A DNA stretch of 64,000 nucleotides, taken from an uncultured Bacilli bacterium (lineage in GTDB: Bacteria; Bacillota_I; Bacilli_A; RF39; UBA660). Location: the NCBI GenBank assembly GCA_934130175.1, contig CAKOXP010000008.1:181-64180 (forward strand). Reading direction: 5' to 3'. Below the pieces are notes generated by a model. That model was not told where the DNA came from. It was given only the letters and a program-made list of their open reading frames with translations, and ran no database searches. The position numbers and the translations under genes were made by a program. Below are positions 2,390 to 42,632 of this stretch, piece by piece (positions within the stretch are counted from its first letter, which is position 1; each line of letters begins with the position of its first letter).

Positions 2390-3421
2390 TTAATACGAAA
2401 TATTTGTTTTTGCAACTTCTATAACTGGACGAACACCTCTTTTGCCATAAAATAGCTCACCAGTTTCATCAGAGTTCCCATCTCCTGTTGAATCAACGTA
2501 GAAAGCATAAATTCCACGAAATTCAGTAAAGAGTAACATAGCCATGTTTGTTTTATACATATCTAGTTTAGAAGAATGTGCATTTTCTAACCAATATCCA
2601 TATGCATCATTTTTATTGTTTGAACTATATTGAGTACTTTCCATATAATAACTATATTGTTTTAAAATACCTTTTTGAAATGTACCATAATTTGAAATTG
2701 ATTTTTTTAAATCTTCAATAGCTAATAATCTTGCAGCATACCCATTATAAGAAAAAGTTGTTGGTAACGTTCCAGATGATGCTATATTAGTACCAATTTC
2801 ATTTGTTATCGTTCGAGATATATTTTTTAAATTCACATTCTTCCATTGCTCTACAGTTGGTAATTGTTTAATAGCCGTTACTGGTCCATTATTATTACTA
2901 CTACTTTCATCATAAGCAATTCCTACTGTACTTGTAGGATTTGCACCATCTACGTTACTATAATAAATCAACATTGCAGTATCATCATCTAAATCTCCTA
3001 GATAGTAAAATCTCTCTGTTGCTTCATTATATACTCCATCTCCATTTACATCACAGTCAAATGCATCTCCATTTGTTAATGTTCCCTTTGTTCCAAGACT
3101 TCCATAGGTTATAGCATCACCAAGTGAATAACCATCTGCTAAACAATAACCAGAGGTATCAGTATTTTCACATTTTTCTGTATGAAGACTTGTCGCACGC
3201 TTACACAATACTGGTTTACAATAAGAACCTTTTGGACATTCTTTTTTAGCTTCTTCTATCTTCTTTGTTGCTTTAGTACTTATTTTATCTAAAGCATCTT
3301 GAACATTTGTTGCCCCTAAATTGTCCGTATCTACATAATTTATACTTGTTGCCTGTATAATTGTCGATGCATATACACTAGTTCCGAGTAGTAGTAAACT
3401 AACTACCCCCCCCCAGTACAA
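2390..3421 (-). CDS. Secreted protein with an NVQDALD N-module and a Cys-rich/GVRPVIEV C-module; native 5' end (ATG 3464) is out of frame at a G9 tract
   Basis: The track ORF starts at a TTG. Upstream, SD GGAAGGTG-5nt-ATG(3464) opens MKIIKLIMKNNNYKFVLGGGS*, which stops at 3399-3401. G8 or G11 would fuse it to ...VVSLLLLGTSVYASTIIQ (a good signal peptide). The C-terminal 270 aa are paralogous to 53749..55143 and 58197..59591. Confidence 0.75.
   Translation of the reverse strand: MYWGGVVSLLLLGTSVYASTIIQATSINYVDTDNLGATNVQDALDKISTKATKKIEEAKKECPKGSYCKPVLCKRATSLHTEKCENTDTSGYCLADGYSLGDAITYGSLGTKGTLTNGDAFDCDVNGDGVYNEATERFYYLGDLDDDTAMLIYYSNVDGANPTSTVGIAYDESSSNNNGPVTAIKQLPTVEQWKNVNLKNISRTITNEIGTNIASSGTLPTTFSYNGYAARLLAIEDLKKSISNYGTFQKGILKQYSYYMESTQYSSNNKNDAYGYWLENAHSSKLDMYKTNMAMLLFTEFRGIYAFYVDSTGDGNSDETGELFYGKRGVRPVIEVAKTNISY
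3406..3414 (-). repeat. Homopolymeric G9 (C9 on the plus strand) in the 5' coding region
   Basis: Counted base by base. It is one of only two 9-nt G/C runs noticed in this AT-rich window. Confidence 0.95.
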
Positions 3422-3605
3422 ATTTGTAATTATTATTTTTCATTATCAACTTTATTATTTTCATCTTTTCACCTTCCATTATAATTAAAGTATACTTTAT
3501 TTTTTAATTCATTTCAATTGATTTTCACTAAATTTACAACTTAACTTCACTCTATCTTCACAAAAAATGAATAGACTTATTATGTACAGAAAGGAGATAT
3601 ATAAA

Positions 3606-17914: not shown

Positions 17915-18457
17915 TCAAATAGCATATGATATTGTTCCTATTACTTTGGCACTTGTTATCTTGGTACCAGTTAGCTCTCTTAACATAACATCACCATTTG
18001 GTTTAATTGTCAAGAATGCGGTATTACTAACACTACTTTCTTGCCAAACAATTCCATCAACCTGTTGTCTTGGTCTGTAATCAGTTGGTATATTAAATAC
18101 AACATTTGTAGTTGGTGATTTTACGTAAACCCCAATATTTATAATGACTGTACTAGATGTTTTTGCATAATAATTATTATGCAGAGAATCATTTATTAAA
18201 GTATAACCACTATTAAAATTTGAAACTATAGTCTTTTTTGTTTCTAACTTGTCTTCAATACTTGAAAGCCTAGAATTTACTTTACCACAAGTTCCATCAA
18301 TAGCTGCTTGAACGTTAGCAGCACCTAAGGATGAATTATCTGAATAACCAACTTTACTGGCACTAATTGCATAAGTTGTTGCAGCATACGTACAGCCTAT
18401 AGAAATAATACCAGTTATTAGTGTAGTAATTATAATTATCATAATTGTTTTCTTCAT
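17915..18457 (-). CDS. Small secreted protein, NVQAAIDG N-module with a unique C-terminal domain (paralog of 32339..32878)
   Basis: SD AGGTGGTG then ATG 18457. Signal peptide ...SIGCTYA, then ATTYAISASKVGYSDNSSLGAANVQAAIDGTCGKV. Confidence 0.7.
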   Translation of the reverse strand: MKKTIMIIIITTLITGIISIGCTYAATTYAISASKVGYSDNSSLGAANVQAAIDGTCGKVNSRLSSIEDKLETKKTIVSNFNSGYTLINDSLHNNYYAKTSSTVIINIGVYVKSPTTNVVFNIPTDYRPRQQVDGIVWQESSVSNTAFLTIKPNGDVMLRELTGTKITSAKVIGTISYAI

Positions 18458-18490
18458 CTTAGACACCACCTATTATACTATTCTAAGATT

Positions 18491-18504
18491 ATTATACCCA
18501 CCCC
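18491..18504 (-). promoter_or_regulatory. -10 TATAAT preceded by an interrupted G tract (GGGGTGGG)
   Basis: Minus strand reads TTGATT-18nt-TATAAT. Homologous to the G9-containing promoter at 32913..32927. Confidence 0.5.
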
Positions 18505-18508
18505 GAAA

Positions 18509-18537
18509 CAAAAAAATCAAGCAATTTCTTGCTTGAT
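18509..18537 (-). terminator. Intrinsic terminator after rpmF (part of the duplicated cassette 5' region)
   Basis: ATCAAGCAA-gaaa-TTGCTTGAT followed by T7. Confidence 0.7.
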
Positions 18538-18547
18538 TCTTAACTTA

Positions 18548-32338: not shown

Positions 32339-32878
32339 TTACCTTGCATACAATCTAATAATTTCAAAATGATTTTGATTTACATTTGATGATTTTGACG
32401 TTGTTCCTACCACAATGCTTTTTTTTGTTATTGAAATAGCACCATCCCAGTAATAACCATAGTTACTACTATAGGAATAAAGTTTACTACTAAACTTTCC
32501 AGTTGATGTAGGTGGAATTTGATAACTGTTAGCAGAATAGGCCCAAAAGTTAGAAACATAGATTATTGGAACAATTTCTGTATATTCTGACAAATCAATA
32601 TTATAAGTAAGTGAGTAGCCGTTGCTGGTATCTTTAGTTGGTGTTGGTAGAGTTATTTCAATCAAATTCTTGTTAAGCTTATTTGCTAAAACAGTACTTA
32701 CCTTACTACAAGTTCCATCGATTGCTGCTTGAACGTTATCTGCTCCTAAACTGGAATTGTCTGTATAACCAATATTTGAAGCATTAATTGCATATGTTGT
32801 TGCAGCATATGATCCACTTATTGAAATTACACAGGTAATTGTCGCTATTATAAGTGTTATTCTTAAACTCTTTTTCAT
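32339..32878 (-). CDS. Small secreted protein, NVQAAIDG N-module with a unique C-terminal domain (paralog of 17915..18457)
   Basis: SD GGTAGGTG then ATG 32878. Signal peptide ...SISGSYA, then ATTYAINASNIGYTDNSSLGADNVQAAIDGTCSKV. Confidence 0.7.
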   Translation of the reverse strand: MKKSLRITLIIATITCVISISGSYAATTYAINASNIGYTDNSSLGADNVQAAIDGTCSKVSTVLANKLNKNLIEITLPTPTKDTSNGYSLTYNIDLSEYTEIVPIIYVSNFWAYSANSYQIPPTSTGKFSSKLYSYSSNYGYYWDGAISITKKSIVVGTTSKSSNVNQNHFEIIRLYAR

Positions 32879-32912
32879 CTTAGATATCACCTACCATACT
32901 ATATCTAAGATT

Positions 32913-32927
32913 ATTATACCCCCCCCC
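32913..32927 (-). promoter_or_regulatory. -10 TATAAT immediately preceded by a G9 tract in the promoter spacer
   Basis: Minus strand reads TTGATT-tttttt-gcctc-GGGGGGGGG-TATAAT, a 20-nt spacer versus 18 nt in the paralogous promoter. Confidence 0.55.
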
Positions 32928-32932
32928 GAGGC

Positions 32933-32961
32933 AAAAAAAATCAAGCAAAATTTTTGCTTGA
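32933..32961 (-). terminator. Intrinsic terminator after ftsZ (homologous to the one after rpmF)
   Basis: TCAAGCAAAA-a-TTTTGCTTGA followed by T8. Confidence 0.7.
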
Positions 32962-32967
32962 CTTAGA

Positions 32968-34113
32968 TTAATAATTTCTATCCTTTAAAAATGGAGGAAG
33001 ATCAAATTCTGAATCAGAATCATTAGATGAATCCTCATCAATAGGAGTTAATATTTCACTAGTTGGTTGTGATTGATATATCATTTCTGGTTCAACTCTT
33101 TGGGTTCTTCTTGTTTGTTGAACATTGCTGTAAACAGGTTGACTACTTTCTATTTCTCTATTTTTCTTATCGAAACCTGTAGCAATTACAGTAACTATTA
33201 CTTCGTCAGATAAGTTTTCATTAATAACTGAACCAAAGATTGTATTAATATCAGTATTAGCTGCTGCACGTACAACTTCTGCTGCTTGTTCTGCTTCAAA
33301 TAATGTTAAGTTAACTCCACCTGTAATATTGATAATAGCATCAGTTGCTCCTTCAATAGATGTTTCAAGAAGTGGTGAAGATACAGCCTGTTTAGCAGCT
33401 TCAATTGCTCTATCTTCTCCCATACCAATACCAATACCGATAATAGCATGACCACTTTTCTCCATTACAGCTTTAACATCTGCAAAGTCTAGGTTAACAA
33501 GTCCAACTACAGCAATCAAATCAGAAATTGATTGAACACCACGACGTAATACGTTATCAACTTCTTTAAATGCTTCTAACATTGGAGTTGTTTTATCAAT
33601 AATTTCTCTTAATCTATCATTTGGAATAACAATTAAAGTATCTACATGTTTCTTTAATTCTTCTAATCCTTCTAAAGCATTTTGCATTCTCTTCTTACCT
33701 TCGAATGAGAAAGGTTTTGTAACAATTGCTACTGTAAGTGCACCTAAAGCTTGAGCAATTTCAGCAACTACTGGAGCTGCACCAGTTCCAGTTCCTCCAC
33801 CCATTCCACAAGTAACAAATACCATATCTGCTCCTGCTAAAGCATCTTCTATTTCTTTCTTAGATTCAACTGCAGCTTCTTTACCAATCTCTGGTCTTGC
33901 TCCTGCTCCTAATCCATCTGTAAGAGATGCTCCTATTTGAATTTTAACATCTGCTTTAGAACTATTTAATACTTGTAAATCTGTGTTAGCTGCAATAAAC
34001 TCTACTCCCTTAACACCAGATTCAACCATTCTATTGATAGCGTTACCGCCACCTCCACCAAGACCTATTACTTTAATCTTGGCTAATTGATCCATTTCTA
34101 ATCCGCCTATCAT
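32968..34113 (-). CDS. ftsZ: Cell division GTPase FtsZ
   Basis: GLGGGGGNA and [10 protein letters not shown] motifs, with a C-terminal DLPPFLK tail. Confidence 0.97.
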
Positions 34114-35367: not shown

Positions 35368-35465
35368 ATTATCACTCCAATCTTAACAATATTATTATAC
35401 TATAAATTGATTTCTAGAACAAGATTAATTTAAACTAAAAAGAAGATACTAAAAACAATATCTTC

Positions 35466-36155
35466 CTATTCCTTTATTTGGAAATGATTACCACTATCTA
35501 AGTATAATACCCCTTTTCTTCCATCTAGTTGAGTTAATACTTTATTGTAGTAATTTAGCATTCTAAATTTAGTCAAAGTTAAATAAACACTATTATCATC
35601 GTCCATATATAATAAAAATCTATCTTTATCAAATTCATTAGGTGTGTAGGTTATTTCTGATACCTTTCCTAAAATATCTTTGTCTATTTTCTTTAATCCT
35701 TTTATTAACATATCATACTTAGTATCTGGTACATAATTCATAAGTCTTGGGATTCTAAATAAAGTTACTTCTTCATCTTCCTTTATACTTTTTTTATTTT
35801 CAAAGACAATGGTATGATCAACTTCATAGCTAAATAAGGGAGTATTTTCTTCTATATCTATTTCTAAGACATTATAGAATTTCTTTTTTATTATTGCCTT
35901 TTTTATGTATGGGCTTTTTTCTAATTTTTCTTCAATCAAACTACTTCTAGTTAGAAAAAATGATGGATAATCTTTAATATTTGCAAGTTCTATAATATAA
36001 TCATCATTTAAATAATTAGTATTTTTAATAATAATATTTTTTATTTTTGTATGTAGTAACAAATATATTAATAAAGCAAAAAAAGCTAGTATCAAAAGAC
36101 CTAGAAATAATCTAAATACTCTTAATTTTTTCTTCTTTACTAGTTTCTTTGCCAT
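35466..36155 (-). CDS. divIB: Cell division protein DivIB/FtsQ
   Basis: Basic N-terminus, single TM, then POTRA-like region. Position is between murB and ftsA. Start is ATG 36155 (SD GGGAG 8 nt upstream). Confidence 0.7.
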   Translation of the reverse strand: MAKKLVKKKKLRVFRLFLGLLILAFFALLIYLLLHTKIKNIIIKNTNYLNDDYIIELANIKDYPSFFLTRSSLIEEKLEKSPYIKKAIIKKKFYNVLEIDIEENTPLFSYEVDHTIVFENKKSIKEDEEVTLFRIPRLMNYVPDTKYDMLIKGLKKIDKDILGKVSEITYTPNEFDKDRFLLYMDDDNSVYLTLTKFRMLNYYNKVLTQLDGRKGVLYLDSGNHFQIKE

Positions 36156-42356: not shown

Positions 42357-42591
42357 ATATATCCTCCTTACAAAAAAAATAACTATAATCTAAGGACGAA
42401 TTATCGCGGTACCACCTTAGTTTATAGTTATTTATTACTTACTATACACTTATATTCTTTTAACGCAAGAATTACGCTTACTATTAATAAGGACTCCTAA
42501 GACGAATTCGTATAATTATATTATCTGTTTCCACCAACCACAGACTCTCTAAAAATAATCATTATATTACTACTTCTTAATCAACATCGAT
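42357..42591 (-). promoter_or_regulatory. T-box leader (Phe) with terminator/antiterminator
   Basis: Minus strand has an extended -10 TGaTATAAT (42598..42606). Stem I-like elements are CGATGTTGA, AGAGAG and GGTGGAAAC, and a GAA-UUC-G specifier candidate lies at 42504..42509. The T-box motif is AAGGTGGTACCGCG (42405..42418). The terminator is CTATAAACTAAGG...CCTTAGATTATAG followed by T8 (42371..42427). Confidence 0.85.
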
Positions 42592-42632
42592 AGCTGTATT
42601 ATATCACAAAAAGTACAAATTTACTAGTGTTT

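Follow-up and report, generated by a model that had tools for sequence, protein, structure and literature searches.

Does a run of nine G residues, set between the -35 and -10 hexamers of a promoter, switch the expression of the small secreted protein encoded downstream? The question is raised by one locus of an uncultured gut Bacilli bacterium of the RF39 lineage (contig CAKOXP010000008.1), in which the tract lies on the minus strand between ftsZ and a gene for a 179-residue protein, here called gene A. The window is the whole stretch of 64,000 nt that was analysed, and all coordinates refer to it. Judged on sequence, the G9 run is probably a slipped-strand contingency switch, ON/OFF or graded, of the type known from porA of Neisseria meningitidis, vlp of Mycoplasma hyorhinis and tp0126 of Treponema pallidum. 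This would be a switch of known mechanism, placed in a lineage and a gene family where it is undescribed; a search of the literature on RF39 or uncultured gut Bacilli together with phase variation found nothing relevant.

The G9 tract and its natural alleles

Read directly, positions 32944-32913 of the minus strand are TTGATT-T6-GCCTC-G9-TATAAT, with a -35/-10 spacer of 20 nt, in agreement with what a first-pass annotation of this DNA had reported for gene A. From the ftsZ stop codon onwards the order on this strand is palindrome, T8, GCCTC, G9, TATAAT, a 34-nt leader and the ATG at 32878. The features of the region are as follows.

32968-34113, minus strand: ftsZ, with its stop codon TAA at 32970-32968
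32941..32961, minus strand: 21-nt perfect palindrome TCAAGCAAAA-A-TTTTGCTTGA, directly after the ftsZ stop codon; 5' boundary of a duplicated cassette
32939..32944, minus strand: -35-like hexamer TTGATT, a 4/6 match to TTGACA
32933..32940, minus strand: T8 run, terminator U-tail and upstream portion of the promoter spacer; polymorphic as T7/T8
32928..32932, minus strand: GCCTC, the non-repetitive portion of the spacer; GCTTC, CATCT or CTTC in other alleles
32919..32927, minus strand: G9 homopolymer (C9 on the plus strand), the hypermutable element, directly adjoining the -10 box
32913..32918, minus strand: consensus -10 box TATAAT, invariant across all copies of gene A and its paralog B
32877..32911, minus strand: leader inverted repeat ATCTTAGATAT / ATATCTAAGAT, with the Shine-Dalgarno sequence AGGTG (32892-32888) in the loop and the AU of the start codon in the stem
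32339..32878, minus strand: gene A, 179 aa, ATG at 32878; ftsK comes next

The consensus promoter scanner used on the window does not list the gene A promoter because it accepts spacers of 16-18 nt only. Spacers in the window's five best canonical promoters measure 16-17 nt; therefore, spacers of 19-22 nt should be weak and one of 18 nt acceptable.

A tract of this kind is out of keeping with the base composition. The GC content of the window is 27.5% (16.7% C and 10.8% G on the plus strand), and its only two G/C runs of six or more, at 3406-3414 and 32919-32927, are each exactly nine long; by the authors' arithmetic from the base counts, the Bernoulli expectation for runs of nine or more is approximately 0.005. 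The gene A tract is thus of slippage-capable length and over-represented for composition and, at the sequence level, it lies between the two hexamers, as homopolymers do in switches of the porA, vlp and tp0126 type. Exactly three open reading frames (ORFs) in the window, at 32.9 kb, 18.5 kb and 3.4 kb, encode a module with the motif NVQxAxD, and the claim made earlier that both G9 tracts belong to genes with this module is borne out for two runs out of two. Across 111 kb of related loci (GC 28.6%), all 31 runs of at least G7 occur in a -35...Gn context, in the sense orientation of a family gene, and TATAAT or TATTAT directly follows 28 of them.

Natural copies of the locus (ftsA-ftsZ-gene-ftsK) were recovered from independent human gut metagenome assemblies (Hadza, MERR22, k141 and Logan), mostly through exact-protein look-ups, with three loci supplied by one DNA pattern scan of metagenome contigs. 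The main alignment holds 26 independent copies of the locus over 1.1 kb. The first-pass annotation had taken the G9 tract for a transcriptional phase-variation switch and had suggested that the adjacent T8 run may add variability; in nature both runs are indeed polymorphic in length, with G9 in 16 of the aligned copies, G8 in five, G10 in three and G9AG in two, and with T7 as well as T8. The combined alleles and their spacers are the following.

T7-GCCTC + G9: 8 copies, spacer 19 nt
T8-GCCTC + G9: 4 copies, spacer 20 nt
T7-GCTTC + G9: 4 copies, spacer 19 nt
T7-GCCTC + G10: 2 copies, spacer 20 nt
T8-GCCTC + G10: 1 copy, spacer 21 nt
T7-GCCTC + G8: 2 copies, spacer 18 nt
T7-GCTTC + G8: 1 copy, spacer 18 nt
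TTGTTT-T6-CTTC + G8: 2 copies, spacer 18 nt
T8-GCCTC + G9AG: 2 copies, spacer 22 nt

Tract length has changed on no fewer than five haplotype backgrounds, with G8 and G10 each seen on three, in front of genes whose proteins are identical or near-identical. This recurrence across haplotypes fits recurrent mutation, with recombination as an alternative source. Throughout the 26 copies of 1.1 kb, changes in the T- and G-runs are the sole non-triplet indels, the others being in-frame indels of 3 or 9 nt (ftsZ tail, one divergent copy), and nearby A8, A7 and T7 runs have zero length variation. Over approximately 4.5 kb of seven sequences, the T- and G-runs are likewise the sole indels wherever all seven loci are homologous. 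Between samples, then, the tract varies and its flanks are constant. Three contigs start inside the G tract (L018, L019 and L088); the start of the Logan contig L019 at exactly G8 is the outcome expected of a G8/G9 mixture in a de Bruijn graph, which is only suggestive.

Spacer length in paralogs and relatives

A natural point of comparison is paralog B, whose promoter has an interrupted tract.

18491..18520, minus strand: paralog B promoter, with TTGATT at 18520-18515, an 18-nt spacer T5-G-TTTC-GGGGTGGG and TATAAT at 18496-18491
18497-18504, minus strand: interrupted tract GGGGTGGG, within the paralog B spacer
18458-18489, minus strand: the same leader element as at gene A, a conserved inverted repeat
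17915..18457, minus strand: gene B, 180 aa, with the same N-module as gene A

The promoter, which stands behind rpmF and is preceded by the same kind of hairpin, reads as had been described earlier (TTGATT, 18-nt spacer, interrupted G-run, TATAAT). As a negative control, GGGGTGGG is identical in 7/7 complete copies of paralog B, and the promoter as a whole is identical in L013, L089, L090, L092, L093 and L094, so that the interrupted tract is stable. The earlier description of this copy as locked holds in that it is invariant in all seven copies; that it is locked ON is unsupported, as other interrupted copies have spacers of 19, 21 and 22 nt.

Among species representatives of the Genome Taxonomy Database (GTDB), the family is confined to metagenome-assembled genomes (MAGs) of uncultured "Bacilli bacterium" from human (HGM10839 and a Hadza MAG) and rabbit. 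Across species, family promoters keep a G tract in direct contact with the -10 box, although their flanking sequences differ. HGM10839 has at least 11 family copies; in nine promoters the G9 is uninterrupted and immediately precedes TATAAT or T+TATAAT, and two copies have an interrupted tract, one of them the ftsZ-locus orthologue with GGGAGGGTT. In the relatives from rabbit MAGs, a perfect TTGACA occupies the position of TTGATT, and promoters from these MAGs include the following.

TTGACA-CAACCCTA-G11-TATAAT
TTGACA-AGACCCRTC-G9/10/11-TATTAT
TTGACA-AAATAWGAC-G10/11-TATAAT
TTGACA-N12-G7-TATAAT
TTGCAA-N10-G9-TATAAT

That the related G-tract elements with perfect TTGACA and TATAAT are promoters is, from their boxes, hard to doubt. 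A spacer of 19 nt is arrived at in several ways, as TTGATT+10+G9, TTGCAA+10+G9, TTGACA+8+G11, TTGACA+9+G10 and TTGACA+12+G7. Counted over distinct promoters, spacer length has a strong mode at 19 nt; there are several instances of 18 and of 20 nt, and 21-22 nt is rare. The total -35/-10 distance, and not the G count, is thus what is conserved, and, since the non-G part makes up for differences in the number of G's, the tract would act by spacing. The pattern says that the usual consensus state would be 1-2 nt longer than the optimum. The first-pass expectation that G6-G7 would give 17-18 nt is arithmetically right for a T8 background, but neither G6 nor G7 is present among the 26 copies, in which 18 nt is reached via T7+G8.

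In several of the rabbit loci (L032, L035, L039, L047, L051 and L057), approximately 200 nt separate TTGACA-N9-G10/11-TATAAT from the family gene downstream of it; the long leader there is conserved and may contain a mini-ORF (ATGAATAAGAAATTAA...). Near the contig ends of L034 (2411), L059 (2388) and L061 (2423), G8-9 in a TTGACA-N9 context is followed by AGRCTGTCCGAGAATGAA or by the end of the contig, with no -10 box; these three tracts are probably assembly breaks at a repeated or heterogeneous promoter.

Terminator, leader and gene product

The palindrome behind ftsZ and its T-run are scored by the scanner as an intrinsic terminator (12 pairs, loop of 3, T tail), and the hairpin has an RNA fold z of -3.9. 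A stable stem-loop and a U-run 3' of the stop codon, the marks of a Rho-independent terminator, are thus present for ftsZ, with only 3 G-C pairs in the stem. The first-pass annotation had overlooked that TTGATT is the descending arm of this hairpin; the hexamer overlaps that arm and takes in the T-run's first two residues. When the A and B copies are aligned, the upstream genes are dissimilar and similarity begins at the hairpin, from which it spans the T-run, the G tract, TATAAT, the leader, the signal peptide and the N-module; the terminator-like hairpin therefore travels with the gene. The same hairpin stands ahead of most family copies in HGM10839, independent of the upstream gene, and GCTTGATTTTT is retained even in copies without the left hairpin arm (L023, L027 and L030).

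The terminator-like palindrome, TCAAGCAAnAAnTTGCTTGA, accompanies the cassette behind ftsZ, rpmF and other genes (window 32941-32961 and 18521-18539; L022, L024-L026, L028, L029 and L043), and its descending arm provides the -35 box. The allele of L083 and L087 combines G8 (18-nt spacer) with two substitutions, A to T in the -35 box, which becomes TTGTTT, and G to T in the left arm of the hairpin; these substitutions would weaken both the terminator stem and the -35 box. Elsewhere in the division cluster, positions 1-470 of contig L004, compared with window ~35400-35880, hold a different gene (faint pentapeptide-repeat match) upstream of ftsA in place of a POTRA/DivIB-like gene, a local rearrangement or strain difference.

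Between the promoter and the start codon, 16 distinct leaders align to an inverted repeat ATCTTAGAT...ATCTAAGAT. Pairing holds in 97% of the cells of this alignment, as against 23-48% with the partner slid, and the stem has two compensatory double changes, approximately 20 G-U cells and 4 mismatches; this covariation speaks for pairing at the RNA level. The full stem has a predicted folding energy of -10.4 kcal/mol. Its 5' arm starts 2 nt after TATAAT, upstream of a canonical transcription start, which casts some doubt on the start site. The full stem may form only in RNA reading through from ftsZ or rpmF, in which it would mask the start codon, and RNA born at the promoter would be without most of the 5' arm. 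Terminator and leader could in this way insulate the gene doubly and leave the poly-G promoter alone to decide its expression. An Rfam scan of the whole window returned no family at the leader; the only Rfam family in the window is a T-box leader (RF00230, 113.9 bits) at 42389-42593 on the minus strand.

The product of gene A consists of a signal peptide or anchor, a conserved module (...YAATTYAINASNIGYTDNSSLGADNVQAAIDGTC) and a beta-sandwich C-terminal domain, the last predicted with confidence for residues 70-179. The family comprises more than 120 clusters at 90% identity, all derived from gut metagenomes, in which one of several signal-peptide or anchor types is joined to a near-invariant 35-residue module, YAATxYAIxAxxIGYxDNSxLGxxNVQAAIDGTC, and to one of many C-terminal domains. 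Many of these domains match Pfam Gp10_C and PHROG tail or tail-fibre families. A Pfam search with the three window proteins gave no match, and a PHROG search matched only paralog B, to the C-termini of phage minor tail protein families (E = 3e-8), leaving gene A unmatched. A Foldseek search with the gene A model returned weak matches only, the best being phage tail proteins at TM 0.3-0.4. Scanning IMG/VR contigs for the N-module found no family member, and hence no sign of a phage-borne cassette. The family proteins have no lipobox and are not lipoproteins. From the signal peptide and the variable head, it is plausible that the gene A product is a surface protein. The family is mosaic (proteins P0001-P0120), and some members are A/B chimeras (P0015 and P0016, for instance, join a B-type leader to an A-type head), which suggests recombination within the conserved module.

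The other G9 tract of the window is in a third family member, paralog C.

3406..3414, minus strand: second G9 tract, within the coding region of paralog C

In the G9 form, the ATG at 3463, which is preceded by a Shine-Dalgarno sequence, hits TAG after 20 codons; G8 or G11 would join this ATG, with a normal signal peptide, to the 343-codon ORF at 2390-3421. All copies of paralog C (L070-L078, L096 and L097) have G9 or a 12-nt interrupted version that leaves the same wrong frame, and an orthologue of only 58% protein identity shares it. A search for an in-frame (ON) form of paralog C, covering 266 retrieved proteins and the members of the paralog's 90% cluster, found none. The tract is either a strongly OFF-biased contingency locus or a site of programmed slippage or frameshifting, and it singles out G9 as a special length in this genome.

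The proposed switch, its rivals and known systems

The proposed mechanism starts from a G9 tract that would behave as a slippage-prone simple-sequence repeat within the spacer of a sigma-A-type promoter (TTGATT ... TATAAT), itself driving a small protein, secreted or anchored in the membrane, from a large family that is mosaic and variable. At replication, the tract would gain or lose single G's, and the T-run likewise but less often; each change would alter the distance and the rotation between the -35 and -10 boxes, and with them the strength of the promoter. Because of this slippage, a clonal population should always hold cells at differing levels of expression. The terminator hairpin would insulate the promoter from a strongly expressed upstream gene (ftsZ, or rpmF in the case of paralog B), with its descending arm doubling as the -35 box. 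We infer that TATAAT serves as the -10 box, that transcription depends on tract length and that spacers of 17-18 nt represent the high state and those of 19 nt or more a low or OFF state, with 19 nt poised. At 20 nt, the window allele would on this view be low or OFF, with 18 nt two steps away. A poised 19-nt state would be expected where a multigene family is mostly silent, and a mutational bias of poly-G tracts toward G9-G10 would help to maintain it (PMC8355987).

A number of observations weigh against a switch. No spacer of 17 nt or less is found among the approximately 60 promoters, the shortest being 18 nt (T7+G8), and a 19-nt mode implies that nearly every copy in nearly every sample is weak. 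The interrupted copies have spacers of 18, 18, 19, 19, 21 and 22 nt, which extend beyond any plausible ON length. TTGATT matches the consensus at only four of six positions and is part of a terminator stem, so that its conservation could have another cause. The leader stem uses bases 2-6 nt past TATAAT, which a start approximately 7 nt downstream would exclude from the RNA. Paralog C cautions that a conserved G9 is by itself no proof of frequent switching, and in Mycoplasma agalactiae the T-tract of the vpma promoter plays no switching role (PMC2268961). Finally, some of the variant alleles come from low-coverage contigs (L015, coverage 2.2; L012, 3.7; L087, 2.8).

The last point, together with the three contigs that begin inside the tract, is what an artefact of sequencing or assembly, i.e. 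homopolymer miscalls in short-read metagenome assemblies, has in its favour; such an origin of the length variation is scarcely credible, as the tract is internal to contigs of at least four independent studies and assemblers, variants recur across studies (G8 in L083 and L087, G8 in L015 and L016, G9AG in L003 and L004), the A8, A7 and T7 runs of the same contigs never vary, and the window and L002 are identical across 5 kb. The T- and G-runs could also belong to the 3' end or read-through region of the ftsZ RNA, as a terminator accessory in which UGCCUC pairs with the G run, and not to a promoter at all. A second small hairpin, UGCCUC/GGGGUA, is in fact predicted after the terminator that the scanner detects, yet the sequence before the G's is unconserved (GCCTC, CATCT, GTATCT, CAACCCTA, AAATAAGAC), copies without the hairpin (L023, L027, L030 and those from rabbit) keep -35...Gn...-10, and a perfect TATAAT always follows the tract, all of which makes this account very improbable.

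Two further explanations, each unlikely but to be taken more seriously, accept the tract and question its switching. It may be hypermutable without its length controlling expression, transcription arising instead from a -10-only promoter or from ftsZ read-through and the polymorphism being tolerated noise. The persistence in nature of spacers of 18-22 nt, the weak -35 box buried in the terminator stem, a leader stem that reaches upstream of the expected +1 as if longer transcripts mattered, and the vpma T-tract as a precedent for a homopolymer without a role (PMC2268961) would all agree with this. Against it, runs of G9-G11 in a genome of 27-29% GC would decay fast without selection, whereas the same promoter position is held in diverged paralogs and species, with a total of 19 nt kept by compensating G and non-G lengths; the rabbit copies have a perfect TTGACA, and a terminator lies directly upstream. 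Alternatively, the tract could be a fixed promoter element, with 19 nt as its working geometry (a regulator site or a rigid G:C melting block) and changes in length mildly deleterious. Such an element would account for the strong 19-nt mode across contexts, for the prevalence of G9 at the locus and in HGM10839 (nine G9 promoters) and for the constant contact between tract and -10 box, and a non-spacing mechanism, including DNA melting beside the -10 box, has been considered for tprL of T. pallidum (PMC7864442). An interrupted or mixed G-rich sequence would serve that purpose more safely, yet uninterrupted runs are kept; G7, G9, G10 and G11 all occur at a conserved total distance, which points to spacing and not to a motif of fixed G length; the spacer has no dyad symmetry and so is not MerR-like; and canonical promoters in the window use 16-17 nt.

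Three other candidates were tried and rejected. The spacer, a T-run, a pyrimidine-rich pentamer and a G-run, has no inverted repeat such as a MerR-type long-spacer promoter would have. The single uninterrupted G9, with no other G runs nearby, does not allow an intramolecular G-quadruplex. Reading GGGTAT as the -10 box of a sigma-B promoter finds no GTTTAA-like -35 box, and the rabbit copies have perfect sigma-A boxes.

Beyond the slipped-strand switch at gene A, a broader proposal can be made only tentatively, and is doubtful as it stands: that terminator hairpin, poly-G spacer promoter and start-codon-masking leader form a portable, lineage-wide cassette, serving as a surface variation system of 10-20 scattered genes. 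Such a cassette would give independent stochastic ON/OFF expression of recombining secreted-protein genes with heads like those of phage receptor-binding proteins, in uncultured, genome-reduced gut Bacilli of human and rabbit, for antigenic or phage-interaction variation. Its resting state would lie one slippage step above ON, at a 19-nt spacer in the promoter tracts and at G9 within the coding region of paralog C.

The textbook examples of simple-sequence contingency loci come from pathogens (Neisseria, Haemophilus, Campylobacter, Treponema, Mycoplasma), and in gut commensals phase variation is known mainly via invertible promoters and methylases. Here, a variable secreted-protein family of uncultured low-GC gut Bacilli appears to be wired to poly-G promoter switches, and natural tract-length alleles are directly visible in public metagenomes. 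If the switch is real, tract length would be a marker of expression state readable from metagenomic reads, would pinpoint the surface molecules under the strongest diversifying pressure (IgA or phage) in organisms not yet grown, and would offer a natural series from G7 to G11, with compensating non-G spacer, for studying selection on spacer length.

Among known systems, M. hyorhinis vlp, in a low-GC relative within the Bacilli sensu lato, is a multigene family coding for variable surface proteins, whose genes have a conserved 5' region and N-terminal part and variable C-terminal parts, and the family described here likewise shares a conserved 5' region and N-terminus with variable C-termini and has its own promoters with a spacer homopolymer. 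Each vlp gene is switched ON and OFF independently by the homopolymer in the spacer of its own promoter, and spacer indels also switch maa2 of Mycoplasma arthritidis and vmm of Mycoplasma mycoides (PMC2268961). The vlp tracts are poly-A and the genes encode tandem-repeat lipoproteins at one clustered locus, whereas the genes here have poly-G tracts, are scattered behind housekeeping genes and encode proteins with no lipobox and with phage-tail-fibre-like heads.

The T. pallidum genes are close in the nature of the tract. In tp0126, poly-G between the -35 and -10 boxes acts by spacing with a 17-nt optimum; in tprE/G/J/L, eight or fewer G's are permissive and most cells have G9; and in tprL, the tract overlaps the -10/transcription start site region and a spacing mechanism is ruled out (PMC7864442). 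Shared with tp0126 and tpr is poly-G of approximately 8-11 nt in promoters of a paralogous putative surface-protein family, and shared with tpr is a G9 mode with rarer G8 alleles at the gene A locus. At gene A, unlike tprL, a consensus TATAAT follows the tract. T. pallidum is a spirochaete of 53% GC, in which G runs are less improbable than in these uncultured gut Bacilli of 27% GC.

In N. meningitidis, the length of a poly-G tract between the -35 and -10 boxes sets the level of porA expression, and opc has a poly-C promoter tract (PMC7864442). The gene A locus resembles both in having a homopolymeric G/C tract in the promoter of a (putative) surface-protein gene, and differs in that porA and opc are single genes of a Gram-negative pathogen and gene A belongs to a multi-copy cassette; in addition, expressed porA alleles are at the 17-nt optimum and consensus alleles here at 19-20 nt. 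Campylobacter jejuni has, like the present organism, an AT-rich genome; its G/C runs of approximately 9 nt are restricted to phase-variable genes and are both intragenic and intergenic, and the window has one G9 of each kind. The G9 mode here agrees with the mutational bias that keeps tracts at G9-G10 in C. jejuni (PMC8355987), although the C. jejuni tracts are mostly intragenic, in glycan-modification genes of a different phylum and with measured rates. Set beside all of these systems, the present one is unusual in two respects, the portability of its terminator-promoter-leader cassette and the mode of its spacers at 19 nt.

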